The notes beneath the pieces were generated by a model that had not been told where the DNA came from, ran no database searches, and saw only the letters and a list, made by a program, of their open reading frames with translations. A program made the position numbers and the translations under genes. 14,163 nt of DNA, from the IMG/VR virus record IMGVR_UViG_3300026224_000024; one strand, given 5' to 3'. Source of the stretch: a virus. Lineage: Duplodnaviria; Heunggongvirae; Uroviricota; Caudoviricetes. This document shows positions 1 through 14,163 of this stretch, piece after piece (within the stretch, counting starts at the first letter, position 1; every line of letters starts with the position of its first letter).

Positions 1-71
1 GTGCTTTTGCCGTTACGCACCACCCCGTCAGTAGCTGAACAGGAGGGACAGCTGATAGAAACAGAAGCCAC
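1..71 (-). CDS. insA: IS1 InsA, N-terminal fragment (partial, runs off the window)
   Basis: Minus-strand translation from the GTG at 71-69 gives MASVSISCPSCSATDGVVRNGKS, the recalled InsA N-terminus with its zinc-finger CPSC motif. Confidence 0.7.
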   Translation of the reverse strand, partial: MASVSISCPSCSATDGVVRNGKS

Positions 72-126
72 TGGAGCACCTCAAAAACACCATCATACAC
101 TAAATCAGTAAGTTGGCAGCATCACC
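1..126 (-). mobile_element. IS1 left end (terminal inverted repeat plus first 71 nt of insA); element continues beyond the window's left edge
   Basis: The reverse complement of 1-126 reads GGTGATGCTGCCAACTTACTGATTTAGTGTATGATGGTG...CCAGTGGCTTCTGTTTCTATCAGC, which I recognise as the IS1 terminal inverted repeat and the start of insA. Similarity stops abruptly at 126/127 where the AT-rich target begins. Confidence 0.85.
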
Positions 127-394
127 CAATAACAGTATACTTTTTCATCACAATATCATCTTTCGAAGCATGAGAAATAATCTGGTTTGATAAAGTATAC
201 TTAAAAAATTTAGCAATATCTGGAGCGATAGGAGCTTTAATGATTTTAAAATCGAATTTATCAACAACTCTTGCGGTTCTACTCATACCCGCTTTAAGAT
301 GTCTAGTAATGAAATACAACGATATTTTCGCCGCATCATCATCCTTAAGTTGCTCAGCATACTCTAATAATTCTTCAAGCTTTAACATTTTCAT
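122..394 (-). CDS. Hypothetical soluble protein, distal gene of the AT-rich cassette; 3' end interrupted by IS1 (last codon and stop supplied by the IS1 end)
   Basis: 90-aa ORF starting at the ATG 394-392, which overlaps the upstream gene's TGA stop (ATGA). The stop TGA (124-122) and the last Gly codon lie inside the IS1 inverted repeat, so the native C-terminus is unknown. The locus is visibly AT-rich. Confidence 0.55.
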   Translation of the reverse strand: MKMLKLEELLEYAEQLKDDDAAKISLYFITRHLKAGMSRTARVVDKFDFKIIKAPIAPDIAKFFKYTLSNQIISHASKDDIVMKKYTVIG

Positions 395-1005
395 TCCTTA
401 TGGGATTCAGCATAAAAAAGTTTTGGGCCCACGTCCTCAACATCAAGAAGATCATCTTCCTCCAAATACTTTGATTTAGTCAAAACCATACCAGTGCGTT
501 TTTTGTCGCTTTCTAAATCCAAATATGTAACTTGATATAAAGTATAATTAATACTTATTGTAGGATTTATAAGTATCATGCTTGAATTAATATATATTAA
601 AGCCGTTACCGTTAACAATATTGCTATTGGTATAACATTAGTTAAAGTGGATAGATCCTGAAATACAAACGGAATTATATATGTAAAAAGATAGCTTATT
701 GATTCATTGTTTTTATTTTCAATATCTATAACTCTTACAGTTCTACCACTAGTGGCGCATCGACGTTTTATATTTTTTAAAAAAATTGTTAATCCTACAA
801 TACCAAATAATGATAATACACCAATGACACTGACCGCGCCAAAGTATTTAAAGAAAATAGTTAATGATTCAACACTTATACCTTTCCAATTTAAATAGCT
901 TCTATAAGTATACAATTGCACAAAACACATGATAAAGAATAGGGGAAGGTATGACACTATAAATAGCGAAACTCTAGCACCTAAATGTAGTTTATTTACT
1001 CTCAT
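391..1005 (-). CDS. Hypothetical integral membrane protein (about 4 predicted TM helices, ~58-aa hydrophilic acidic C-terminal tail)
   Basis: 204-aa ORF with an ATG start at 1005-1003. Hydrophobic stretches at roughly aa 12-31, 52-76, 103-117 and 123-146. Translationally coupled to the downstream ORF. AT-rich, unlike the rest of the prophage. Confidence 0.6.
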   Translation of the reverse strand: MRVNKLHLGARVSLFIVSYLPLFFIMCFVQLYTYRSYLNWKGISVESLTIFFKYFGAVSVIGVLSLFGIVGLTIFLKNIKRRCATSGRTVRVIDIENKNNESISYLFTYIIPFVFQDLSTLTNVIPIAILLTVTALIYINSSMILINPTISINYTLYQVTYLDLESDKKRTGMVLTKSKYLEEDDLLDVEDVGPKLFYAESHKE

Positions 1006-1267
1006 AACTACCCCACAGCCTACACGTCTAGTATTTTATGTTATTTCGAATAATTATGCATCAGATTACCATCCTACAATTGTGCATAAAACGAGCATTT
1101 TGCTGATTTTTCTGCGGATGCCTGAGACAGACAACCTCAAGCACCCGCAGCAATTCTACTTAACTCTCCTTTTCCCGCAAACCGTTTTTATCCCCATCGG
1201 CAAATCGAATACACCACCAGCGCCACCGCCATCGCAATTCCTACCGTGGTGAATGCCTCAGGCCGGG

Positions 1268-2062
1268 TCATTGATTCACCTCCTGCGGTGGTTCCGGTAG
1301 CGGCATCCAGTGAGTTGAGCTCTCTACTTCGACGCCGTCTTTGTCCACAAAAGCCATCTTATTCCCGCCACGAGTGGGGCAAAAAACCTTATCCCATGAA
1401 CCGGGGAATACATTCCCGAGATCATCGCGAAGAATCACATCGCAATATTCAGCAGGAACTGCATCACTACAGCTTATCCAGCCAGCCGGAGTTCCCGGGG
1501 AGCTGGTTGACGTTTCCGAGATTTCCCGAAAATTGTTGGTTGACGAATTCTTATTTTCCCGGAAGTTTCCGGCCTGAAGCATGGCGACGCGGCAGGCGTT
1601 CCAGCCATCAGCATATGTTTCAGTTACACCGTCGAGATGACAAGTAAGCAAATCCATTTCATCAGGCACTACCATCGCTGGCGGCGCTGCGTAAAGCGGT
1701 GTTATTTCTGCCCGAAAGTCACCTATTTCATGCAGTCGCACACACCGCTCGACTTCTGCTTTGTCAGAATACATAGTGGTGAACGTATTATATTCATTGT
1801 CAATTTGCGTGAAGGTTGCCTTCCACGCCACTGGCTCTGCTTCCAGTGATGCCAGTGCTATTTTGAATAACTCGCACTCTACCCATGCCATCTCTGAATT
1901 GGGGTGACATTTCGCAACCGCTATTTTTAATTTGGCTTCTTCAATTAATTGTTCTTTGGTTAATTCAGTTATTTCAGTTTTCCTTATATGGATTAATTTT
2001 GTTGTGTAGCGCCCTGAATGGTTCCCATACCATATCGATATACAGTTCAACAATCGGCTCAA
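1268..2062 (-). CDS. DUF551-like prophage protein (start uncertain: TTG at 2062 or ATG at 1891)
   Basis: The long ORF ends with GWISCSD...THWMPLPEPP, which I recall as the DUF551 signature of E. coli prophage proteins. The only in-frame ATG (1891) has no Shine-Dalgarno, but the frame looks protein-like back to the TTG at 2062. Confidence 0.5.
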   Translation of the reverse strand: MSRLLNCISIWYGNHSGRYTTKLIHIRKTEITELTKEQLIEEAKLKIAVAKCHPNSEMAWVECELFKIALASLEAEPVAWKATFTQIDNEYNTFTTMYSDKAEVERCVRLHEIGDFRAEITPLYAAPPAMVVPDEMDLLTCHLDGVTETYADGWNACRVAMLQAGNFRENKNSSTNNFREISETSTSSPGTPAGWISCSDAVPAEYCDVILRDDLGNVFPGSWDKVFCPTRGGNKMAFVDKDGVEVESSTHWMPLPEPPQEVNQ

Positions 2063-2192
2063 ATATTTTTCCGATTATCCAAATCAGAAACAGCAGGTTT
2101 ATCGGTATCATCAACACGATAAACAGAATGAGAAACAGAAATTCTGTTGTTCTACTCTTTCGCGGATATTTTTTTCTAAATAATGTGACCAT
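1974..2192 (-). CDS. Possible small single-pass membrane protein (72 aa)
   Basis: ATG-initiated ORF with a basic N-terminus followed by one ~24-residue hydrophobic helix (FLFLILFIVLMIPINLLFLIWIIG). It sits in an AT-rich patch between the Ea22-like and DUF551-like genes. No strong Shine-Dalgarno; could be a composition artefact. Confidence 0.3.
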   Translation of the reverse strand: MVTLFRKKYPRKSRTTEFLFLILFIVLMIPINLLFLIWIIGKIFEPIVELYIDMVWEPFRALHNKINPYKEN

Positions 2193-2286
2193 TCATTACC
2201 GCCCTTTCAGGCGGCCTCCCGATGTTCTGAGGGTGCAGAAATCCCTCCGGTTAAGGATTAAATTTTATTTACAACACTAAATTTAA

Positions 2287-2841
2287 TTATTCAGGCGCGC
2301 GAATCTGTTCCGCACAATGCAACAATGCTTCTGTCACTTCCTTAAGCGTTACGGTATCGGCATCATCCAGTCCTGCAACTTTTGCGTGCCTGACAAACGC
2401 CGCGCGAAGCTCGTTAAACGCCACCGCCCGTACATCAGCCAGGAAAGCATCTGTAGCCGAGGTTTGCGGCATACCTCCGTCTGTTGCGCAGATATACGCA
2501 TCAGATAGTTCATCCTGCTCGCCATCAAACACGTAGCAACTCTGTACGATAAATTTATTCAGCTCCGCATTCTCCGCCGCAAGTGCAGCAAGATTAGTCT
2601 CCAGCTCTGCAATGCGTTTGCTTTGGGCTTCCCGTTCATCAAGCACTGCCAGCACGGTAGCCGGATTGGCTGCTGCTATGAATCGCTTATTGGCGCGATT
2701 ATCTGGTCCTGAGCATGATGCTATGTAGTAATTTGCGTTCAGTCCGGCATCAGCAATTAACCCATAATCATCAGAACACCATTCGCCAGGGGTTGCATTT
2801 TCTGCCGCCATTCGCAGTGCCTGGTAATTAATGTTGCTCAC
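2287..2841 (-). CDS. Ead/Ea22-like prophage protein (coiled-coil)
   Basis: The track ORF begins at a TTG (2871). A better start is the GTG at 2841-2839, preceded by AGGAGGA and overlapping the upstream gene's stop. The N-terminus [21 protein letters not shown] and the coiled-coil [17 protein letters not shown] resemble recalled Ea22-like proteins. Confidence 0.55.
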
Positions 2842-3571
2842 TGGTTTCCTCCTGGCAAAGCTGGGCGACAATATCGCGATATTTATTCAGCTCCCGCAGC
2901 GCGCCACAGACTCGCTCCCATTTCCGGATATCACTTTTCGCCCGACGCAGTTCGCGGTTTGCCTGTCGCAGCGATGGCAGAACCAGATTATCCACTCGCT
3001 TCTCAAGCGGCTGCACAATGTCCGCCACAGTTTCTGTTTTAATATCTTCCTGTGTTGCAGCTTCCTGTACTGGTAACGCAACACATGCAGGCTGAGGAAA
3101 GGCTTTACCATCAGTTTCCGCTACCGATGCCGTTTTCGGCTCTGCTGGTAAATTACCGCCCGGCATGCAGTAACGAAATTTACCGTTCTGATTAACACGA
3201 ATCAGACGACCTTTGCTGATTGCCATTGCCAGCGTTGAAGCCACTTTGCGGGATGTTGTACCGAACAGCGTAGCCAGTTCATCCGCCGTTTGTGATCCGC
3301 GTTGTTCAATCGTCGCGGTTAAATCGCACTCTGAGATTTTCGCTACTGTCGCCGTGGTGGTTTCTTCCGGCTGTTCTTCTGGCGCTGGCTGTTCCTGCTG
3401 AACGTTGTTATCAGCCACACGCCAGGTGTATACGCTTTTATCAACGAAGCCAGCCTTTTTCAGTTCCCACAGCTCGTTCAGTACTTCTTCACGACTGATA
3501 TCAAGTCGCGCAGCCAGCTCTACCGACGTGGCTTTTCCCATCGCTTTCAGTGCGTCAAAAACAGTCTCCAT
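2828..3571 (-). CDS. Hypothetical prophage protein with two winged-helix-like segments
   Basis: 247-aa ORF with an ATG at 3571 preceded by GGGAGGA, 20 nt downstream of the ydaV stop. Two HTH-like segments (aa ~14-43 and ~93-124) and a basic helical C-terminus. Confidence 0.65.
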
Positions 3572-3591
3572 AAATTTCCTCCCGGTAAAAA

Positions 3592-4338
3592 TTACTTTTC
3601 AATACCTGGCTGACCAACATTCGGGCGCCAGCTCTCCCAGTTAAAATTCACCCAGCGCCCGCCGTTCATGGTCATGCGATCCATAATCCGCTCGCCGAGC
3701 AATGTTTTCATGGCCTCATAGTTCAGGTTTGTCAGCATTCCCACGCTACGCATCGACGCTGTCCGTCGATCAATAATCTGGTGCAGTACCACCTGCTCGT
3801 TTTTCGTCTCGCGCTGAATGCCAATTTCATCAAGAACCAGCAGCTCCACTTCGCACAGTTCCCGCAAAAATTTTTCGCCTGACTGCCCGTCGTCATAGCT
3901 GGCGTGCAGGGCGCTCATAACATCAGCCACGGTAACCACAATCACTGTCTGACCGTCTTTCAGCAGGCGATTCCCGATAGCTGCCGCTAAGTGATTCTTC
4001 CCGGTACCAGGTTTTCCGCTGAATGCAAAATTTGTACACCCGGTCATCAGTTCATCGGCGATGGATTTCGCCTGGCTTAACGCGTATCGCTGGCCGTCGT
4101 TCTGCACCTGGTAATTCGCAAACGAGCATTTACGGTGCAACGGCTGGATGCCTGAGCGATTCAGAATTTTTTCCACCCGCAACTGGCGATTCAGGCGGTT
4201 GATCTCCTCGCTACGTTTCTGGCCTTCAGCAAGTTGCCACTCGCGCCACTCCGCAACCGTTCTGAATGGAGCGGTTACATGTGGTGGGGCCAGTCTGCGG
4301 ATACGCTCCAGAACGCCTCCTGTCGCAATATTTTTCAT
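3592..4338 (-). CDS. ydaV: DnaC/IstB-like AAA+ helicase-loader (YdaV-like)
   Basis: 248 aa with a Walker A-like GKPGTGKN and Walker B LLVLDEIG. Lies immediately downstream of the replication-initiator-like gene, as the P/DnaC gene does in lambdoid phages. Confidence 0.85.
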
Positions 4339-4344
4339 GGTCTG

Positions 4345-5133
4345 TTACCCCCTGAAGCCTGGCGGGATCGCACTGTCCGGCAACGAGACGGTGTTAACCT
4401 GTCGGAGCAACGTCTCAGGCCGAACACCTTTCGGCGCGAACAGGCCCTGGTATTCATTGGCGATGCTGTGTCGAATCACCTGCTCAGGTGTAAAACCCTG
4501 CTGACGGAATTTTTCCAGTTCCCGTATCGCCCCGTTAGCGCCCTGCTCCGTTCGAATCGGTTTTCGCAATGCCTGTCTGAACCGGACCCACTCATGCCAG
4601 AGTGTTTCCGGCAACCAATCGGGCAGCTCAATAGCCTCCGGCTCGAATTTTTTAGACGCTCGTTTTTGGCGAGGGGGATTTAGGGGGAGATCAGTATTTA
4701 GATCTTCCTCTTCCTCTTCCTCTGGTAACGCTTTTTGATCCGTTTGTGTAACGCCGGCAGCGTTACCTTTTCGTTTCAGTTCACGTATTTTTGTAACTCG
4801 CTCGTTTGTAACCGCCCGTTTTTTAGAGCTTTTTCCGTTATGGCGTTCAAAGTTAGGTAGAGAAAGCCCAACGTCATTTTCGACCAGCCATCCAACCTGA
4901 ATTAACGCATCAGCAAAACCAGCCATAAAAGTGATGCGATCTATTGCACTTTTTGTAACGCCGCGAGCGTTACAATCTGCATTACCGTCTATCATTTGTT
5001 GATCCGCCCATGCCCAGAAGCGAATAACCTTCCCTAATGCGGCATCTGGATCAATATTCAGAATCTCAGCAAGCCTGAATATTTCCGGCTTATCCGGCGT
5101 AATAACCTCGAGCTTTATCCAGTTTGAAGCCAT
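4345..5133 (-). CDS. ydaU: YdaU-like putative replication initiation protein (O-like; acidic inter-domain linker)
   Basis: 262-aa ORF with an ATG at 5133 preceded by AAGGTGA. It has a central acidic linker (PEEEEEED), and iteron-like repeats lie inside its coding sequence. Precedes the DnaC-like gene. Confidence 0.75.
   Translation of the reverse strand: MASNWIKLEVITPDKPEIFRLAEILNIDPDAALGKVIRFWAWADQQMIDGNADCNARGVTKSAIDRITFMAGFADALIQVGWLVENDVGLSLPNFERHNGKSSKKRAVTNERVTKIRELKRKGNAAGVTQTDQKALPEEEEEEDLNTDLPLNPPRQKRASKKFEPEAIELPDWLPETLWHEWVRFRQALRKPIRTEQGANGAIRELEKFRQQGFTPEQVIRHSIANEYQGLFAPKGVRPETLLRQVNTVSLPDSAIPPGFRG
4724..4813. repeat. Iteron-like cluster: palindrome GTAACGC-N5-GCGTTAC (4748-4766) flanked by GTAAC half-sites at 4724-4731, 4791-4797 and 4806-4813; candidate replication origin
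   Basis: Read directly from the sequence. The cluster lies in the DNA encoding the YdaU inter-domain linker, analogous to lambda ori inside the O gene. Confidence 0.45.
4955..4973. repeat. Second copy of the GTAACGC-N5-GCGTTAC palindrome
   Basis: gtaacgc cgcga gcgttac read directly, about 207 bp from the first copy. Confidence 0.5.
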
Positions 5134-5146
5134 TTGTTTTCACCTT

Positions 5147-5165
5147 GTAACGCTCGCAGCGTTAC
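5147..5165. promoter_or_regulatory. Third copy of the GTAACGC-N5-GCGTTAC palindrome, overlapping the ydaU ribosome-binding region in the ydaT-ydaU intergenic space
   Basis: ttgtaacgc tcgca gcgttaca read directly, ending 14 nt upstream of the ydaU ATG. Candidate operator or autoregulatory site. Confidence 0.45.
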
Positions 5166-5210
5166 ATTTAACTGATACCGAACAAAACAATCCGGCACGA
5201 TTAATTTCAA

Positions 5211-5633
5211 TCAATGCACTACGACAGAATCACCGGACGACCCACCACCGCTGAAATGTGCTTTCCGGTAAACGGCCTGGACTGCATCATCATGCGCATC
5301 AATTGCCGTACTCAACGCTTCCTGCGCCGCCAGTAATGCACGGCGTTCCAGGGTATCGAAGATGCAGAGTCGGTGACGCAGCTCGCGCGGAAGAATTGCC
5401 AGAACCGCAGGGATCAGTGTCTGAATTTTTTCCCTTTGCGCTTTCGTTTCACCTTTTAACCAACGGTGATAGATGTTCTGCTGATTATTCCAGTCCTTGC
5501 CTGGTACCAGGGGCAATTCGCCGCCCCCCTGGCGCAGATATTCTTCAGTAATTGCATTGGCTACCCATGCCTGCCCTTTTTCAGCGGCCAGGGCTAACAG
5601 CACTGATTCGATGTGCTCATGCCTGATTTTCAT
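5211..5633 (-). CDS. ydaT: YdaT-like protein (toxic partner of the RacR-controlled ydaS-ydaT operon)
   Basis: 140-aa ORF with an ATG at 5633 preceded by AGGAG. Overlaps the ydaS 3' end by 17 nt. Length and position match Rac ydaT. Confidence 0.8.
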   Translation of the reverse strand: MKIRHEHIESVLLALAAEKGQAWVANAITEEYLRQGGGELPLVPGKDWNNQQNIYHRWLKGETKAQREKIQTLIPAVLAILPRELRHRLCIFDTLERRALLAAQEALSTAIDAHDDAVQAVYRKAHFSGGGSSGDSVVVH

Positions 5634-5892
5634 GAATCAACTCCTGTGCATTTTGTGTGTTAGCCTTACATCCAACAGGTAAACCATCGGTCGGATTCGG
5701 GTAGATATCAGGCCGGAGTTCATGAGGTGTAACCTCGAAATTCGTAGCCTCTGCGATACGCAATACCTTTTCAGGGCTTAACTGACTACGTCCAGTAGCA
5801 ACGAGGCTAATCATTGATTGCGAACAACCAGCCAGCGCGGCCAAACAAGACTGTCGTACACGATTTTTTTTCAAATATTCATCTAATGTCAT
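5617..5892 (-). CDS. ydaS: YdaS-like Cro/HTH protein
   Basis: HTH-like segment QSCLAALAGCSQSMISLVATG. I prefer the ATG at 5892 (SD AAGGTGA, 6-nt spacer) over the first ATG at 5931, which has no SD. Divergent from racR. Confidence 0.7.
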   Translation of the reverse strand: MTLDEYLKKNRVRQSCLAALAGCSQSMISLVATGRSQLSPEKVLRIAEATNFEVTPHELRPDIYPNPTDGLPVGCKANTQNAQELIHENQA

Positions 5893-5996
5893 AAGGGTCA
5901 CCTTAGTAATATTCGCCAAAATATTAACCATACTAATTTAAATGATCAATACTTATATCAGTTTGAGATTATGAGCTGTGTTCATAAGATGGTGGT
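5893..5996. promoter_or_regulatory. Divergent racR / ydaS-ydaT control region with palindrome TAATATT-N6-AATATTA (5907-5926)
   Basis: 104-bp AT-rich intergenic region between divergent start codons. The palindrome is read directly. The TAATATT motif recurs at 6626-6632 upstream of ydaG. Confidence 0.5.
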
Positions 5997-6461
5997 ATGA
6001 GAAGAAAACGCGAAGAAATCGCATCGCCAGAAGCTACGCAGCGTCTACGCGGAATATGGGATGCAAAAAAAAGAGAGCTCAAATTGACTCAGGAGCTTGC
6101 TGCCGAGCTAATGGGCTTTGAGACGCAATCTACGGTTAGCCACTATCTCAACGGAAAGGCTCCACTTAACACTGATGCGGCATTAAAATTCGCAGTATTG
6201 CTAAGAGTTAAGCCTGAAGACTTGAGGCCTGATTTAGCTGATCTGATGAATTACGTCCGTTCATCTGGAACTTATGACGAAAGTTTCGAAGGCGAAGGGT
6301 GGCGGATGGTTAACAAGCAACAAGCTGATTTACTGGATCTTTTTGATATCCTCCCCGAATCAGAAAAAGCAAAACTAATCGAAAGGCTTAAAGGCCAGAA
6401 TGAACTCTACAAAGAAGCGTTTGAAAATATGCTGGCAGCTCAGAAACGCATGAAGAAATAG
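5997..6461 (+). CDS. racR: RacR-like XRE-family HTH repressor
   Basis: 154 aa with an N-terminal HTH (LTQELAAELMGFETQSTVSHYLNG) and a C-terminal coiled/dimerisation-like region. Divergent from ydaS-ydaT, as in Rac. Confidence 0.8.
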   Translation: MRRKREEIASPEATQRLRGIWDAKKRELKLTQELAAELMGFETQSTVSHYLNGKAPLNTDAALKFAVLLRVKPEDLRPDLADLMNYVRSSGTYDESFEGEGWRMVNKQQADLLDLFDILPESEKAKLIERLKGQNELYKEAFENMLAAQKRMKK

Positions 6462-6480
6462 CCCCCACTACCTCGTAACT

Positions 6481-6505
6481 AAACCGCCATCCCTGGCGGT
6501 TTTTT
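6481..6505 (+). terminator. Rho-independent terminator downstream of racR
   Basis: aaCCGCCAtcccTGGCGGtt stem-loop followed directly by a run of seven T residues. Confidence 0.75.
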
Positions 6506-6697
6506 TGTCCCCTGCGCCCCCATCGCCTTACTTTTTTATCAAAAAAAACACTAAAATTTTCATTAGGATAGTACATTTTTATCAACAAAATGCATATTTA
6601 TGTTGATCATCAATATGAATATAACTAATATTATTGCAGAAGCAGCACGGCGCTGTAGGTTTTAGTTCCGCCACCCGGCGTTAAGGGGAGAGATAAG

Positions 6698-6832
6698 ATG
6701 GTGCATTACGAAGTAGTTCAGTATTTGATGGATTGTTGCGGTATCACTTACAACCAGGCTGTGCAGGCTTTACGCAGCAACGACTGGGATCTCTGGCAGG
6801 CAGAAGCCTCTATCCGCAACAACAAAATGTGA
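6698..6832 (+). CDS. ydaG: Small protein, YdaG-like (44 aa)
   Basis: Not in the ORF track (below its size cut-off). AAGGGGAGAG Shine-Dalgarno 7 nt before the ATG. Translates to MVHYEVVQYLMDCCGITYNQAVQALRSNDWDLWQAEASIRNNKM. Size and position match recalled Rac ydaG. Confidence 0.6.
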   Translation: MVHYEVVQYLMDCCGITYNQAVQALRSNDWDLWQAEASIRNNKM

Positions 6833-6842
6833 GGTGCGAAAA

Positions 6843-6995
6843 ATGCAAAAAATCGACCTCGGCAATAACGAATCCCAGGTGTGCGGCGTGTTCCCCAACC
6901 AGGATGGAACGTTCACCGCCATGACTTATACCAAAAGCAAAACATTTAAAACAGAAACAGGCGCACGTCGCTGGCTTGCCAGAAATACTTGCTAA
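6843..6995 (+). CDS. ydaF: Small protein, YdaF-like (50 aa)
   Basis: GAGGTG Shine-Dalgarno before the ATG at 6843. Translates to MQKIDLGNNESQVCGVFPNQDGTFTAMTYTKSKTFKTETGARRWLARNTC. Follows ydaG by 10 nt. Confidence 0.6.
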   Translation: MQKIDLGNNESQVCGVFPNQDGTFTAMTYTKSKTFKTETGARRWLARNTC

Positions 6996-7193
6996 TCCAT
7001 TATTTGGATTAATTCAATATTCTCGCTGTAGGGGTATAGCAGAAACCACCAAAGCCCGGAGGTGGTGAAATAAAACCGGGCACAACACGAAGGCGCATTT
7101 CCGATATCCATAAAGAGTCGGTCTTGTCTGTTAAATTTAAATGGTGGGAGTGCGCCTCCGGTTGTGAATAACAACACTGCTGTGTGTAGTCTT

Positions 7194-7240
7194 GGCGGCA
7201 TCAGTTTTTTCTTGAAGTTCGACTGATGTCCGCCCTTTTT
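7194..7240 (+). terminator. Terminator-like hairpin (GGCGGCATCAG ... CTGATGtCCGCC, then CTTTTT)
   Basis: Imperfect 11-bp stem with one bulge and an ~18-nt loop, followed by a T-run. Read directly; the large loop makes this uncertain. Confidence 0.35.
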
Positions 7241-7241
7241 A

Positions 7242-7396
7242 AAGTGAATTTTGTGATGCGGTGAATGCGGCTAAGCGCACGCGGCACAGTTAAAAGTCAT
7301 GTTAGTCCTTATTGGTTTGGGTGGGAAAGCCGACTGTAATTGTTAACTGGTTGCAGTCACCTGGAGGCACCAGGCACCGCATCACAAAATTCACTT
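7242..7396. repeat. Perfect 22-bp inverted repeat pair (7242-7263 and 7375-7396) bracketing a 111-bp spacer
   Basis: aagtgaattttgtgatgcggtg at 7242-7263 is the exact reverse complement of caccgcatcacaaaattcactt at 7375-7396. The right arm ends 21 nt before the ATG at 7418. Confidence 0.9.
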
Positions 7397-7417
7397 AGTA
7401 ACCAAGAAGGGAATTAT

Positions 7418-7690
7418 ATGCAAGAGATAAGTTTTGAAGTAACAGCAAAAGATGTACAGGTTAAGCCCGATTACAATCAAAAATTATGTATTGAAGTCAA
7501 TGGCGTGAAGTTATCAGACCTGATTGATTCAGTTGAAGATAACGACGCTATTATTGAAATGGTTGGAGCCGAAGAAATAGCAGAATACTTTTCAACAGAG
7601 GGGCGTCTTCATGAGCTTCTGGAAAAATTTTCATATCAGGATATCGCTACATTTCTGGAAATTAATGGTTATAAAGTTACCGAGGAATAA
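7418..7690 (+). CDS. Strongly acidic small protein (90 aa), first gene of the early-left-like operon; function unknown
   Basis: ATG at 7418 preceded by AAGAAGGG. By my count about 21 D/E versus about 7 K/R. The track ORF starts further upstream at 7340, but the ATG at 7418 has the better ribosome-binding site. Confidence 0.65.
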   Translation: MQEISFEVTAKDVQVKPDYNQKLCIEVNGVKLSDLIDSVEDNDAIIEMVGAEEIAEYFSTEGRLHELLEKFSYQDIATFLEINGYKVTEE

Positions 7691-7708
7691 AGTAGCTCAG
7701 GTGGCGTT

Positions 7709-7918
7709 ATGGAACGTAATCATCTAACAGCTATCAGTGCCGCACAGAGTAAATTCGCCATCGCTGTATTTTTACAGGATGAAGAAATGTTTGAGCAGGC
7801 CATTATTCAGTTTGCAATTGCGACCGGGAGTAAAATAAATGAACACTTTGTTCGCTCTTGTCATGACCGTTTTTCTGACATCAGGCGAAACTCAGGATGT
7901 TGTTACCGGAATTTATAA
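7709..7918 (+). CDS. kilR: Kil-like cell-division inhibitor (KilR-like)
   Basis: 69 aa with AGGTGG before the ATG. The segment AISAAQSKFAIAVFLQDEEMFEQAI parallels the recalled lambda Kil motif (AIQTKFTIATFIGDEKMFREAV). Sits between the acidic gene and ydaE. Confidence 0.6.
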   Translation: MERNHLTAISAAQSKFAIAVFLQDEEMFEQAIIQFAIATGSKINEHFVRSCHDRFSDIRRNSGCCYRNL

Positions 7919-8075
7919 CTCCGAATCTGAATGCAAGGCCGCAGCTATTGAGCAAAAAGTAGCTGGTGAATGTTTCCCTGTTGAGAAATTTATCCGGCCT
8001 GTAGATGAAGAAATTCCCGCAGGCCTCACAGGAGAAAATCATGAAAATAAAATGTGGTTACCACCTTTGCAATAA
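7839..8075 (+). CDS. Possible overlapping small protein with a signal-peptide-like N-terminus (78 aa)
   Basis: ATG with a GGGAGT SD. Hydrophobic N-terminus MNTLFALVMTVFLTSG followed by a Cys-containing hydrophilic region. Overlaps the kilR 3' end by 80 nt in another frame and the ydaE start. Confidence 0.3.
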   Translation: MNTLFALVMTVFLTSGETQDVVTGIYNSESECKAAAIEQKVAGECFPVEKFIRPVDEEIPAGLTGENHENKMWLPPLQ

Positions 8076-8205
8076 AGACGTTGAAGAAAGCAAAACCATT
8101 AAAAGACCACTTCATTTCATGCGTGGAGTTATCCCAACGACGGAAATGAAAAAATATTGTAGTGAAAGTTGTGCCGAAAAAGACCAGATGGCACACGAAC
8201 TTTAA
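8041..8205 (+). CDS. ydaE: Small zinc-binding protein, YdaE-like
   Basis: ATG at 8041 with a GGAG SD. 54 aa with Cys/His pairs (C-x4-C ... C-x3-C) typical of a zinc ribbon. Position between kilR and racC, as in Rac. Confidence 0.65.
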   Translation: MKIKCGYHLCNKDVEESKTIKRPLHFMRGVIPTTEMKKYCSESCAEKDQMAHEL

Positions 8206-8279
8206 TTAACTGACTATTCGAAACTGAATTTATGCCAGCAATGGCAGGGATTCGCTCAACCTTAATTAAGGAGAAAAAC

Positions 8280-8555
8280 ATGATTACCAATTATGAAGCC
8301 ACTGTTGTAACTACCGATGACATTGTTCACGAGGTTAATCTGGAAGGAAAGCGTATTGGCTACGTGATTAAAACAGAAAATAAAGAAACCCCATTCACTG
8401 TGGTTGATATCGACGGTCCATCAGGCAACGTAAAAACACTTGATGAAGGTGTCACAAAAATGTGCCTAGTTCACATCGGAAAGAATCTGCCCGCAGAAAA
8501 AAAAGCCGGATTTCTGGCAACTCTGATTGCAATGAAATTAGGCGGTGAAATCTGA
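8280..8555 (+). CDS. racC: RacC-like protein
   Basis: ATG at 8280 with an AAGGAG SD. 91 aa beginning MITNYEATVVTTDD. Immediately upstream of recE, as in Rac. Confidence 0.8.
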   Translation: MITNYEATVVTTDDIVHEVNLEGKRIGYVIKTENKETPFTVVDIDGPSGNVKTLDEGVTKMCLVHIGKNLPAEKKAGFLATLIAMKLGGEI

Positions 8556-8656
8556 AAGAAATAGCCTGCGCCATACGCAGGCTATGAACAGTGTGTATCC
8601 GGCAAGATCATTCACTGAACAAAACGAATTTTAATCTGAGTTGAGGTTAAAAAACA

Positions 8657-11353
8657 ATGAGCACAAAACCACTCTTCCTGTTACGGAAAGCGAAAAAATC
8701 ATCCGGTGAACCTGACGTCGTCCTGTGGGCAAGCGACGATTTTGAATCGACCTGTGCCACTCTGGACTACCTGCTCGTTAAGTCAGGTAAAAAACTGAGC
8801 AGCTATTTTAAACCTGTTGCCACGAATTTTCCTGTCGTTAATGACCTTCCCCCTGAAGGTGAGATCGATTTTACCTGGAGTGAACGCTATCAACTCAGCA
8901 AAGACTCAATGACCTGGGAACTAAAACCGGGAGCAGCGCCAGACGACGTTCACCACCAGGATAATGCTCAAGAAACCAAAGAACTGGCGGGAGGCCAGGA
9001 AGAAAACGCGCAGGCAGACGCCCACGAGGATTGCCAGGATTGCGAAGTCTCTGTAGCCACTTTGCGGTTCACACAGCGTCTTCTGCACATTTTTACGTAT
9101 GCAGCCGGGGATCGGAAATACCTGCATCATGCCACCCGTGAACAACGGAAACACATTACTGCTCTTGAGATGGATCAGGAAAACAGCTATGTCCAGAATC
9201 TGCTGTTGGCCATACGCAGCATGGCAGAACCGACAACTCTGGATAATGCCGCCCTGCTCCGCCTGACTGATGCAATTAAGGCAGTGTTCTCTATCACGAA
9301 AAAACATCAGCCCTATGAATTTAAGAATTTCATTTCAGCCTGGCTGGATACCGAACACATTGATCGCGGTCTTCTGACAAAAGAATGGCGAAAAGGAAAT
9401 CGTGTTTCACGCATCACGCGCACGGCTTCCGGCGCTAATGCTGGCGGCGGGAACCTCACCGATCGCGGCGAAGGTTTCGTTCACGATCTGACGTCACTGG
9501 CGCGCGACGTAGCCACTGGCGTACTAGCTCGTTCAATGGACGTGGACATTTATAACCTTCATCCGGCACACGCTAAACGTGTCGAGGAAATTATCGCTGA
9601 AAATAAACCACCCTTTTCTGTTTTCCGCGACAAATTCATCACCATGCCTGGTGGGCTGGATTATTCCCGCGCCATCGTGGTTGCGTCCGTAAAAGAAGCA
9701 CCAATTGGGATCGAGGTTATCCCCGCACACGTCACTGAATATCTGAACAAAGTACTGACTGAAACTGATCATGCCAACCCTGATCCAGAAATCGTGGATA
9801 TTGCCTGCGGTCGTTCCTCTGCCCCGATGCCGCAGCGTGTAACAGAAGAAGAAAAACAGGATGATGAAGAAAAACTGCAACCATCTTGCGCAATGGCAGA
9901 TGAACAGGCAACGGCTGAAACAGTGGAACCGGATGCAACTGAACATCATCAGGACACGCAGTCGCTGGATGCTCAGTCACAGGTAAATTCTGTTGATGCG
10001 AAATATCAGAAACTGCGGGCAGAACTCCATGAAGCCCGGAAAAACATTCCGCCCAAAAATCCTGTCGATGCAGACAAATTACTGGCTGCCTCTCGCGGAG
10101 AATTTGTTGAAGGGATTAGCGACCCGAATGATCCGAAATGGGTTAAGGGGATCCAGACTCGCGACTCTATATACCAGAATCAGCCAGAAACGGAACAGAA
10201 CGACCAGAAAGCGGAACAGAACGACCCAAATACGCAACAAAACGAGCCAGAAACGAAACAGCCTGAGCCAGTAGTGCAACAACAGGAAACGGAGAAAGTT
10301 TGCACCGCCTGCAGTAAGGCTGGCGGCGGCAACTGTCCTGACTGTGGCGCGGTGATGGGCGACGCAACATACCAGGAAACATTCGGTGAAGAGAATCAGG
10401 TTGAAGCTAAGGAAAAAGATCCGGAGGAAATGGAAGGCGCTGAACATCCGTACAATGAGAATGCTGGCAGCGATCCGCATCGCGATTGCAGTGATGAAAC
10501 TGGCGAAGTCGCAGATCCCGTAATCGTAGAAGACATAGAGCCAGGTATTTATTACGGAATTTCGAATGAGAATTACCACGCGGGTCCCGGTGTCAGTAAG
10601 TCTCAGCTCGATGACATTGCTGATACTCCGGCACTGTATTTGTGGCGTAAAAATGCCCCCGTGGACACTACAAAGACAAAAACGCTCGATTTAGGAACCG
10701 CTTTCCACTGCCGGGTACTTGAACCGGAAGAATTCAGTAACCGCTTTATCGTAGCACCTGAATTTAACCGCCGTACAAACGCCGGAAAAGAAGAAGAGAA
10801 AGCGTTTCTGATGGAATGCGCAAGCACAGGAAAAACGGTTATCACTGCGGAAGAAGGCCGGAAAATTGAACTCATGTATCAAAGCGTTATGGCTTTGCCG
10901 CTGGGGCAATGGCTTGTTGAAAGCGCCGGACACGCTGAATCATCAATTTACTGGGAAGATCCGGAAACAGGAATTTTGTGTCGGTGCCGTCCGGACAAAA
11001 TTATTCCTGAATTTCACTGGATCATGGACGTGAAAACCACAGCGGATATTCAACGATTCAAAACGGCTTATTACGACTACCGCTATCACGTTCAGGATGC
11101 ATTCTACAGTGACGGTTATGAAGCACAGTTTGGTGTGCAGCCAACTTTCGTTTTTCTGGTTGCCAGCACAACTGTTGAATGCGGACGTTATCCGGTTGAG
11201 ATTTTCATGATGGGCGAAGAAGCAAAACTGGCAGGCCAGCAGGAATATCACCGCAATCTGCGGACCCTGGCTGACTGCCTAAATACCGATGAATGGCCAG
11301 CTATTAAGACGTTATCACTGCCCCGCTGGGCTAAGGAGTATGCAAATGACTAA
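8657..11353 (+). CDS. recE: Exonuclease VIII (RecE): long disordered acidic N-terminal region, C-terminal 5'-3' exonuclease domain
   Basis: 898-aa ORF. The C-terminal ~270 aa match recalled RecE nuclease domain sequence. The 3' end overlaps the recT start. The N-terminal region is low-complexity with heptad-like repeats. Confidence 0.9.
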
Positions 11354-12179
11354 GCAACCACCTATCGCAAAAGCCGATCTGCAAAAAACTCAGGGAAACC
11401 GTGCACCAGCAGCAGTTAACGATAAGGATGTGCTGTGCGTGATTAACAGCCCGGCAATGAAAGCGCAACTGGCAGCAGCTCTGCCACGTCACATGACAGC
11501 GGAACGCATGATCCGCATTGCTACAACAGAAATCCGTAAAGTACCGGAACTAAGAAACTGTGACTCGACGAGTTTTATCGGTGCCATCGTACAGTGTTCA
11601 CAGCTCGGACTTGAGCCAGGTAGCGCCCTCGGTCATGCATATCTGCTACCGTTCGGCAACGGAAAAGCAAAAAACGGTAAGAAGAACGTACAGCTGATCA
11701 TCGGTTATCGCGGCATGATCGACCTTGCCCGTCGATCAGGTCAAATCATCAGTCTGTCAGCTCGTGTTGTCCGTGAATGTGATGAATTCAGCTATGAACT
11801 TGGCCTTGATGAAAAACTGGTTCATCGTCCCGGTGAAAACGAAGATGCCCCTATAACCCATGTCTATGCTGTTGCAAAACTGAAAGACGGAGGAGTGCAG
11901 TTTGAAGTCATGACCCGCAAACAAGTAGAAAAAGTTCGCGACACACACAGCAAGGCGGCAAAAAATGCAGCGTCAAAAGGGGCGTCGTCCATCTGGGATG
12001 AACACTTTGAAGACATGGCCAAAAAGACAGTGATACGAAAACTGTTCAAGTATCTGCCGGTATCTATTGAAATCCAGCGTGCAGTATCGATGGATGGAAA
12101 AGAGGTGGAAACAATTAATCCAGACGACATATCGGTTATAGCCGGGGAATACAGTGTAATCGATAATCCAGAAGAATAA
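11346..12179 (+). CDS. recT: RecT single-strand annealing protein
   Basis: ATG at 11346 with an AAGGAG SD. Begins [24 protein letters not shown] and carries conserved RecT blocks ([35 protein letters not shown]). The track ORF starts 19 codons upstream, inside recE. Confidence 0.9.
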
Positions 12180-12223
12180 TCCAGCCTGGCGGTGTAATGC
12201 ACCGCCAACGTGAGATAGTTTTT

Positions 12224-12430
12224 ATGACAAAAACTTTGAGATATGACGATGTTAAACCATGTCCGTTTTGTGGTTGTCCATCAGTAACGGTGAAAGACAT
12301 TTCAGGATATTACCGGGCAAAATGCAACGGATGCGAATCCCGAACTGGCTATGGTGGAAGTGAAAAAGAAGCGCTCGAAAGATGGAATAAACGAACCACT
12401 GAAAATATTAATGGAGGCGTTCATGTATAA
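12224..12430 (+). CDS. ralR: Restriction alleviation protein Lar/RalR (anti type I restriction)
   Basis: Start chosen at the ATG 12224; begins MTKTLRYDDVKPCPFCGCPSVTVKDISGYYRAKCNGCESRTGYGGSEKEALERWNKR with a CxxC ... CxxC zinc ribbon. Matches recalled Rac Lar. Confidence 0.8.
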   Translation: MTKTLRYDDVKPCPFCGCPSVTVKDISGYYRAKCNGCESRTGYGGSEKEALERWNKRTTENINGGVHV

Positions 12431-12611
12431 AATTACCGCTACAATTGAAAAGGAAGGTGGCACTCCTACTAACTGGACAAGATATTCAAAATCTAAACTA
12501 ACGAAATCAGAATGCGAAAAAATGCTCTCAGGTAAAAAAGAAGCAGGCGTTTCCAGAGAGCAGAAAGTAAAACTGATAAATTTTAATTGCGAGAAACTTC
12601 AGTCCTCGTGA
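12423..12611 (+). CDS. ydaC: YdaC-like small protein
   Basis: ATG at 12423 with a GGAGG SD, overlapping the ralR 3' end. 62 aa. Position between ralR and xis, as in Rac. Confidence 0.6.
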   Translation: MYKITATIEKEGGTPTNWTRYSKSKLTKSECEKMLSGKKEAGVSREQKVKLINFNCEKLQSS

Positions 12612-12643
12612 ATTGCATTGTATTCAAATTAAAACTTCATAGC

Positions 12644-12659
12644 TGATTATTAATAATCA
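12644..12659. promoter_or_regulatory. Perfect 16-bp palindrome TGATTATTAATAATCA upstream of xis
   Basis: Read directly; about 50 bp upstream of the xis start. Candidate operator or promoter element for xis-int. Confidence 0.35.
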
Positions 12660-12710
12660 ACATCAGGCGTCAATTTCAGTCTAACATTGGCGCCTGCCAG
12701 AGGTGATGCG

Positions 12711-12926
12711 ATGGAACAAGTAATCTTTAATGAAGAGTGGATGGTTGAATACGGCCTGATGCTTCGCACTGGTCTGGGGGCCAGACAAATTGAAGCATAC
12801 CGCCAGAACTGTTGGGTGGAGGGCTTCCACTTCAAACGAGTATCTCCTTTAGGTAAGCCAGACAGCAAACGAGGGATTATCTGGTACAACTATCCAAAGA
12901 TAAATCAGTTTATCAAAGACTCATGA
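12711..12926 (+). CDS. xisR: Excisionase (Xis; YdaQ/XisR-like)
   Basis: ATG at 12711 with an AGGTGA SD. 71 aa beginning [32 protein letters not shown]. Directly upstream of int. Confidence 0.8.
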
Positions 12927-12984
12927 TATATCTAAATTACCAACAGGTGTCGAGATTAGAGGTAGAAACATTCGCATCTGGTTC

Positions 12985-14163
12985 ATGTTTCGAGGAAAAC
13001 GATGTCGGGAAACATTAAAAGGCTGGGAGATTACAAACAGTAATATTAAAAAGGCCGGAAATTTAAGAGCGCTGATAGTTCATGAAATAAACTCCGGTGA
13101 ATTTGAGTATTTAAGACGTTTTCCCCAGTCCAGCACTGGGACAAAAATGGTGACAACGAGAGTCATAAAAACGTTCGGGGAGCTTTGTGATATCTGGACA
13201 AAAATTAAAGAGACAGAGTTAACAACAAACACAATGAAGAAAACGAAATCACAATTAAAAACACTCAGAATAATAATTTGTGAAAGTACCCCGATATCAT
13301 ATATTCGTTATAGCGATATCTTAAACTACCGGAATGAACTGCTGCATGGAGAAACGCTTTACCTGGATAATCCAAGATCCAACAAAAAAGGAAGAACCGT
13401 GCGCACAGTTGATAACTATATCGCCCTTCTCTGTTCGCTGTTACGTTTTGCGTATCAGTCGGGATTTATATCAACCAAACCATTTGAAGGAGTAAAAAAA
13501 TTACAGCGAAACAGAATAAAGCCTGACCCGTTATCTAAAACAGAATTCAATGCATTAATGGAAAGTGAAAAAGGACAGAGCCAAAACTTGTGGAAATTTG
13601 CCGTTTACTCCGGGCTTCGTCACGGGGAACTGGCAGCTCTTGCGTGGGAGGATGTGGATTTCGAGAAGGGAATTGTGAATGTCAGAAGAAACCTGACGAT
13701 ACTTGATATGTTCGGTCCCCCAAAAACAAATGCCGGGATCCGGACGGTAACATTACTACAGCCAGCTCTTGAAGCACTGAAGGAGCAATACAAACTGACC
13801 GGGCATCATCGCAAAAGCGAAATCACTTTTTATCATCGGGAGTACGGCAGAACCGAAAAGCAAAAACTGCATTTTGTTTTCATGCCCAGGATGTGTAACG
13901 GAAAACAGAAACCTTATTACTCGGTAAGCAGTTTGGGTGCGAGATGGAATGCAGCAGTAAAACGTGCTGGTATTCGCCGCCGTAATCCGTACCATACGCG
14001 ACATACTTTTGCCTGCTGGCTGTTGACGGCAGGAGCGAACCCGGCATTTATAGCCAGCCAGATGGGGCATGAAACTGCGCAGATGGTGTATGAAATTTAC
14101 GGTATGTGGATTGATGACATGAACGACGAACAGGTAGCTATGTTGAATGCGCGGTTATCGTAG
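12985..14163 (+). CDS. intR: Tyrosine site-specific integrase (IntR-like); coordinates are from the first in-frame ATG, but conserved N-terminal coding extends upstream to about 12928 without a start codon
   Basis: 392 aa from the ATG at 12985, with C-terminal catalytic residues (R..HTRHT.. and a Tyr near the end). The frame stays open 27 codons upstream (stop at 12901) and encodes SKLPTGVEIRGRNIRIWF, which resembles the lambda Int arm-binding N-terminus. The window ends at the int stop codon. Confidence 0.85.
   Translation: MFRGKRCRETLKGWEITNSNIKKAGNLRALIVHEINSGEFEYLRRFPQSSTGTKMVTTRVIKTFGELCDIWTKIKETELTTNTMKKTKSQLKTLRIIICESTPISYIRYSDILNYRNELLHGETLYLDNPRSNKKGRTVRTVDNYIALLCSLLRFAYQSGFISTKPFEGVKKLQRNRIKPDPLSKTEFNALMESEKGQSQNLWKFAVYSGLRHGELAALAWEDVDFEKGIVNVRRNLTILDMFGPPKTNAGIRTVTLLQPALEALKEQYKLTGHHRKSEITFYHREYGRTEKQKLHFVFMPRMCNGKQKPYYSVSSLGARWNAAVKRAGIRRRNPYHTRHTFACWLLTAGANPAFIASQMGHETAQMVYEIYGMWIDDMNDEQVAMLNARLS

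Follow-up and report, generated by a model that had tools for sequence, protein, structure and literature searches.

Is the AT-rich pair of minus-strand genes near the left end of this prophage sequence a new phage-exclusion or defence module, or does it belong to a system that is already known, and can it be expected to protect its host? This question was addressed for the window, i.e., the whole stretch of 14,163 nucleotides that was analysed, by direct observation of gene identities, the IS1 junction, nucleotide composition, genomic context, and population frequency. Positions 127-1166 were found, with high confidence, to represent the promoter-proximal part of a Kiwa system in which kwaB is cut by an insertion sequence, most likely leaving a decayed, non-defending locus in a cryptic Rac-like prophage. 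Judged by its sequence, the region is the Kiwa system that has already been described, and not a new defence module. The original prediction had proposed an undescribed exclusion or defence module; its assignment to anti-phage defence and to a horizontally acquired cassette holds, but the system is not undescribed, as Kiwa is represented in PADLOC, Pfam, NCBIfam, RefSeq, and solved structures.

Gene content of the AT-rich segment

The following features make up positions 1-1166 of the window:

1-126, minus strand: end of an IS1 element, assigned by IS1 identity, with the terminal inverted repeat GGTGATGCTGCCAAC at 126-112 and the insA start codon GTG at 71-69
127-388, minus strand: kwaB', the 5' quarter of kwaB (codons 1-87 of 340), assigned by PADLOC KwaB and by identity to WP_000915482.1
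391-1005, minus strand: kwaA, intact, encoding a 204-aa membrane protein with four transmembrane segments, assigned by PADLOC, NCBIfam, PDB, RefSeq, Pfam, and hydropathy
1006-1166, minus strand: leader of the cassette, with a hok-type -10 box TAGAAT (plus-strand positions 1153-1158) and a 16-bp stem-loop (1113-1151)

The two minus-strand open reading frames on which the original prediction was built are present, at 391-1005 (204 aa) and 122-394 (90 aa), and so is the ATGA overlap between them, given that plus-strand positions 391-394 read tcat, i.e., ATGA on the minus strand. The stop codon of kwaA occupies 391-393, and kwaB starts either at the ATG at 392-394, which creates the overlap, or at the ATG at 386-388 used by RefSeq, which lies two codons downstream and leaves a 2-nt gap. 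The Kiwa operon layout, namely, kwaA upstream with kwaB adjacent to it on the same strand, is preserved with either start.

The 204-aa protein aligns with the PADLOC KwaA profile PDLC00212 with an E-value of 1.3e-101 (residues 1-203 on profile positions 2-204 of 205), and 11 further PADLOC KwaA sub-profiles were matched. With NCBIfam KwaA NF041622 it scores 81 bits (E = 8e-23), which is under the equivalog cut-off of 100; by its sequence, the protein classifies as a KwaA family member but not as an NF041622 equivalog. Solved KwaA chains were matched as well (9mrg_A, E = 3.1e-6; 9o0i, E of about 3e-6), a match to Pfam PF28043 (KwaA) is recorded in precomputed annotations only, and the identical RefSeq protein, WP_001265627.1, carries the annotation "KwaA family protein". 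Four independent profile resources agree on the KwaA assignment. A local Pfam-A scan gave no significant match for either window protein.

The naming of WP_001265627.1 is patchy: most genomes list it as "hypothetical protein" and only a few name it "KwaA family protein", probably because its 81 bits fall under the NCBIfam KwaA cut-off of 100. Surveys that rely on annotation will easily miss this Kiwa variant.

The predicted architecture of the membrane protein agrees with what had been expected from the letters alone. About four transmembrane helices are indicated by hydrophobic segments at residues 12-33, 54-77, 103-116, and 120-146 (Kyte-Doolittle), of which 103-116 is the weakest and was seen only with an 11-residue window, and the C-terminal tail is acidic, with 12 D/E versus 7 K/R in residues 160-204. 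A single-sequence AF2 model of low confidence (pLDDT 55, pTM 0.27) places helices at 6-41, 46-86, 101-116, and 118-145, and its only strands are two C-terminal ones, at 155-163 and 168-176. The model is too poor for a fold search; four helices plus two strands are consistent with KwaA.

The second open reading frame had been taken for a small soluble protein, and this part of the prediction failed: it corresponds to the 87 N-terminal residues of a 340-aa KwaB that is cut by IS1. The truncated frame matches the PADLOC KwaB profile PDLC00223 (E = 4.2e-34, residues 3-89 on profile positions 1-87 of 339), and from the RefSeq start onward its 87 residues are the same as the first 87 of WP_000915482.1, the intact KwaB of 340 aa. 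Intact KwaB contains the Pfam PF16162 KwaB/DUF4868 domain at residues 130-317 (E = 3.6e-16) and matches the solved KwaB chains 9mrx_K and 9o0i (E = 1.5e-5). The region covered by PF16162 is missing from the truncated protein, and the DUF4868 domain is absent from the window, in which KwaB residues 1-87 of 340 are followed by IS1. The kwaB' frame enters IS1 by 5 nt, with a G codon and then a TGA at 122-124. Since this last codon (Gly) and the stop lie inside IS1, the 90-aa open reading frame is a truncation product, and since only KwaB residues 1-87 precede IS1, the locus is Kiwa by descent and incomplete as a system. The pair of a membrane protein and a partner, considered from the outset to be of the defence type, is recovered by the profiles as KwaA plus (truncated) KwaB. 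Homology of the two proteins to a housekeeping or transport function, which would have spoken against a defence role, was not found, both of them matching Kiwa.

Over their full length of 126 nt, window positions 1-126 match IS1 copies, labelled "IS1 family transposase", from at least 5,000 plasmids at 100% identity, and the insA frame runs off the left window end. Its translation matches the N-terminus of InsA; a complete IS1 measures about 768 bp. When the window is aligned with the intact allele of Escherichia coli CEA224S (NZ_CP166080.1), homology begins exactly at 127, the first base past the IS1 terminal repeat. At the sequence level, kwaB is interrupted by an IS1 insertion at 126/127.

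None of the 5,426 complete E. coli genomes contains the IS1/kwaB junction, nor was it found among the GTDB species representatives when these were scanned with an exact 29-mer. Exact matches to the 88-aa product were found in five contigs, of which three, from separate samples (ENA ERZ27241745, Logan ERR273781, SRR5487539), were examined. In these, the junction is identical base for base and lies at the following positions:

ERZ27241745 (locus L003): IS1/kwaB junction, 10268-10399
ERR273781 (locus L004): IS1/kwaB junction, 7139-7160
SRR5487539 (locus L005): IS1/kwaB junction, 1107-1127

The ERZ27241745 contig is 41 kb long and its gene order matches that of the window; all three contigs stop inside IS1. 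As the same junction is present in three independent samples, the insertion is considered genuine and inherited, and not an assembly chimera.

A lineage with the IS1-broken Kiwa allele circulates that has no representative among the 5,426 finished E. coli genomes.

Intact alleles, leader, and prophage context

Uninterrupted alleles were retrieved from E. coli, and they uphold the two-gene cassette of the original prediction but not its small second gene, which is a 340-aa KwaB there. The intact kwaAB coding region is found in 156 of the 5,426 complete E. coli genomes, once in each and always chromosomal, and all 156 copies are full length (340-aa KwaB) and at least 99.4% identical. Deposited phage genomes, 50,697 in all, yielded no match to the intact cassette, and the 60 of the 156 carrier genomes that were listed include no ECOR or D9 strain by name. 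Window positions 127-1250 are 100% identical to CEA224S and 99.7% identical to other intact loci.

The composition of the segment sets it apart from its surroundings. A windowed check bore out the AT-richness that had been visible in the sequence: GC content is 0.30 in 127-1005 and 0.32 in 127-1166, versus 0.47 in 1167-14163, and in a 300-nt profile it ranges from 0.27 to 0.31 over 300-1050 and is back at 0.50 by 1051-1350. In the intact loci, the AT-rich segment likewise has a GC content of 0.32, versus 0.49-0.50 in the flanks. Internal repeats within positions 1-1400 of the window are short and chance-like.

Different prophage backbones carry the cassette. CEA224S has a lambdoid backbone with replication protein P, and the cassette is placed between a DUF551 gene and a series comprising hok, DUF968, RusA, antiterminator, and holin genes. 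Ecol_745 (NZ_CP015074.2) has a Qin-like backbone with DicB, in which the cassette lies between queH and an ISNCY remnant, flxA, relBE, and hokD. The intact cassette is an AT-rich insert of about 2 kb, beside hok/sok, in several lambdoid prophage backbones, and its place in lambdoid or Rac-like E. coli prophages is the early-right region. Its presence in lambdoid, Qin-like, and Rac-like backbones agrees with the idea of a moron in a variable slot. The location at the prophage edge that had been proposed along with it does not stand: the cassette is about 12 kb away from the integrase gene (12985-14163), i.e., mid-prophage, downstream of the replication, DUF1627, Ead, and DUF551 genes, and the left window end is a contig end inside IS1 and not a prophage edge.

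In Ecol_745, a partial ISNCY transposase (L002 3713-4735) is found in place of hok, while the hok/sok leader is kept. This is a further sign of IS-driven erosion around the cassette.

Homology that is common to the different backbones ends at about 1166 (Qin-type matches stop at query position 1040, i.e., window position 1166). In the intact loci, a direct repeat of approximately 36-43 bp brackets the AT-rich kwaAB segment, with its core CCTCAAGCACCCGC at 4990-5003 and 7009-7022 in the intact loci L001 and L002. The copy upstream of kwaA corresponds to window positions 1124-1159, and the copy past kwaB falls on the 5' end of a match to Rfam sok/hok RF01794 (113 bits, L001 4827-5001, minus strand). 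Each copy has, on the coding strand, GTAGAAT followed after four bases by GCGGGTGCTTGAGG and then by a loop and the complementary arm. The arrangement of GTAGAAT and GCGGGTGCTTGAGG is that of a hok-type -10 box followed by the 5' stem-loop of hok mRNA, and the window copy folds as a 16-bp hairpin of about -26 kcal/mol (z = -3.2). These repeats suggest that the Kiwa cassette sits inside a duplicated hok promoter and leader, and kwaAB may be transcribed from the duplicated hok-type promoter. In a consensus sigma-70 scan, no site upstream of kwaA reached the promoter threshold and no terminators were seen; the kwaA leader, scanned permissively against Rfam, yielded chance matches to miRNA models alone (E = 0.33 and 3.7). 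A hok promoter and leader duplicated around the cassette would illustrate how defence morons move between lambdoid prophages.

By its gene content, the backbone of the window can be classified as a Rac-like prophage. It includes genes for integrase, excisionase, DUF1187, Lar/RalR, the RalA sRNA, RecT, RecE, YdaE, and Kil, as well as the repressor, YdaS, YdaT, replication proteins, DUF1627, Ead, and DUF551.

Two modules of this backbone were observed besides the cassette. At 8657-12179, recE (898 aa, Exonuc_VIII and PDDEXK) and recT (296 aa) are apparently full-length, and the Rac-like recombination module, to judge from these frames, looks intact. Positions 12197-12607 hold a Rac-type RalR/RalA type I toxin-antitoxin pair, with the following features in and around it:

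12197-12430, plus strand: Lar/RalR-family open reading frame, opposite the RalA sRNA
12351-12611, plus strand: DUF1187 open reading frame, opposite the RalA sRNA
12429-12607, minus strand: RalA sRNA (RF02694, 218 bits)

Functional state of the interrupted allele

Kiwa was reportedly first described by Doron et al. in 2018, from E. coli O55:H7 RM12579. Its mechanism and structures have been resolved by Zhang, Todeschini et al. 2025 (PMC11785009; PDB 9mrg, 9mrr, 9mrx, 9mtn, 9nyu, 9o0i). KwaA has four transmembrane helices and forms inner-membrane tetramers with a cytoplasmic six-stranded beta-barrel built from ICL1 and the C-terminus, and in KwaB a Rossmann-like domain at the N-terminus, spanning residues 1-185 of the solved protein, is followed by a C-terminal DUF4868 (PMC11785009). 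KwaB dimers bridge the KwaA tetramers into a fence-like membrane supercomplex, which gathers where phages attach and reacts to distortion of the membrane; the binding of KwaB to DNA, via DUF4868, is non-specific and leads to less phage DNA replication and late transcription, and KwaB is inhibited by the phage protein Gam (PMC11785009). Deletion of either gene abolishes Kiwa defence, and DNA binding is severely reduced when the DUF4868 residues that contact DNA are mutated (PMC11785009). Five Kiwa operons of different clusters (ECOR8, ECOR12, ECOR49, D9, and Ralstonia) were all found to be phage-protective, and in these operons phage protection and reduced conjugation both needed the two genes (PMC11785009). 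Just over half of the dereplicated Kiwa genes co-localise with mobile elements, including prophages (PMC11785009).

The intact cassette is expected to act like the characterised Kiwa. By homology with the other Kiwa variants, the intact system would place KwaA tetramers in the inner membrane and join them with KwaB dimers in a fence-like supercomplex; KwaA would sense the membrane distortion at a site of phage attachment or conjugation, and KwaB would then bind the entering DNA by its DUF4868, stalling replication forks and late transcription as well. In the window allele, IS1 has inserted past codon 87 of the 340-codon kwaB and left kwaA untouched, and the resulting 88-aa KwaB stump is without part of the Rossmann-like N-domain and without all of DUF4868. 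Because the break falls midway through the N-terminal domain and no DUF4868 lies on the visible side of IS1, loss of defence is the most likely state of the window copy, as far as can be told from the sequence.

Of the alternatives, retained activity seems improbable: KwaA, with or without the 87-residue stump, which keeps part of the KwaA-contacting N-terminus, would keep a membrane-linked activity, or else IS1 would serve as a selected off-switch that eases the uptake of conjugative plasmids. That the allele has persisted in at least three samples sequenced independently would agree with retained KwaA activity or with a selected off-switch.

A functional split KwaB is quite improbable too. 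It would require that the downstream piece be expressed via an outward or read-through promoter of IS1 and that the fragments reassemble. Split forms are known, in that 70 of 9,797 loci have a two-gene KwaB of multiple independent origins whose halves are predicted to reassemble (PMC11785009), and here one IS1 allele has been kept in at least three samples; however, the natural splits lie at the boundary between the Rossmann-like domain and DUF4868, at approximately residue 185 of 315 (PMC11785009), whereas the break in the window is at residue 87, within the N-terminal domain. The downstream piece would, moreover, be without the native start codon and ribosome-binding site, and sequence past IS1 was not recovered from the complete E. 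coli genomes, the GTDB representatives, or the three contigs.

It is very improbable that IS1 sequence was joined chimerically to the end of a metagenome contig (positions 1-126) and that kwaB is really intact. The identical junction was recovered from three samples through different assembly pipelines, and the join coincides with the last base of the IS1 inverted repeat, where real transposition would place it. An artefact would agree with the absence of the junction from the 5,426 complete E. coli genomes and the GTDB species representatives, and with a 41-kb metagenome contig that stops inside IS1, but short-read contigs normally end in multicopy insertion sequences.

A complete, undescribed two-gene exclusion or Abi module, in which a four-TM effector works with a true soluble partner of about 90 aa, would suit two adjacent or overlapping minus-strand frames of such sizes in an AT-rich accessory segment and the lack of significant local Pfam-A matches for either protein, but it is extremely improbable in view of the final codon and stop of the small frame inside IS1, a 340-aa protein at the same place in 156 of 156 complete genomes with the cassette, and strong profile matches of both proteins to Kiwa, which is already described and annotated. 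The small-partner module is refuted by the IS1 junction together with the intact alleles.

For a Kiwa locus that has most likely decayed through IS1, the annotation [quoted passage not shown] is due. Defence finders that score single genes may call Kiwa in such strains despite the missing effector domain.

Comparison with known systems

Insertional inactivation of prophage and accessory genes by IS1 occurs in E. coli and Shigella, and the window allele resembles such cases in the inverted repeat that abuts the interrupted gene and in showing no adjacent loss on the visible side. Short-read contigs break inside the insertion sequence in those cases likewise, and nothing in the window is unusual in this respect.

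The locus shares with Kiwa the order of kwaA followed by kwaB on one strand, a KwaA of about 200 aa with four transmembrane segments and a C-terminal cytoplasmic part, an intact-allele KwaB in the range of approximately 315-340 aa with a C-terminal DUF4868, and carriage by a prophage. Unlike the solved Kiwa of O55:H7, it is a divergent variant, with weak phmmer matches to that system (E of about 1e-5 to 1e-6), and unlike a complete Kiwa, its kwaB is cut after codon 87 and the DUF4868 effector domain is missing. The closest comparison is with the intact alleles of CEA224S (NZ_CP166080.1; KwaA WP_001265627.1, KwaB WP_000915482.1) and, as a second example, Ecol_745 (NZ_CP015074.2), both of which have the same leader and AT-rich composition as the window. 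Whereas the window copy is cut by IS1, these loci are free of IS1 and continue through a full 340-aa KwaB into hok/sok.
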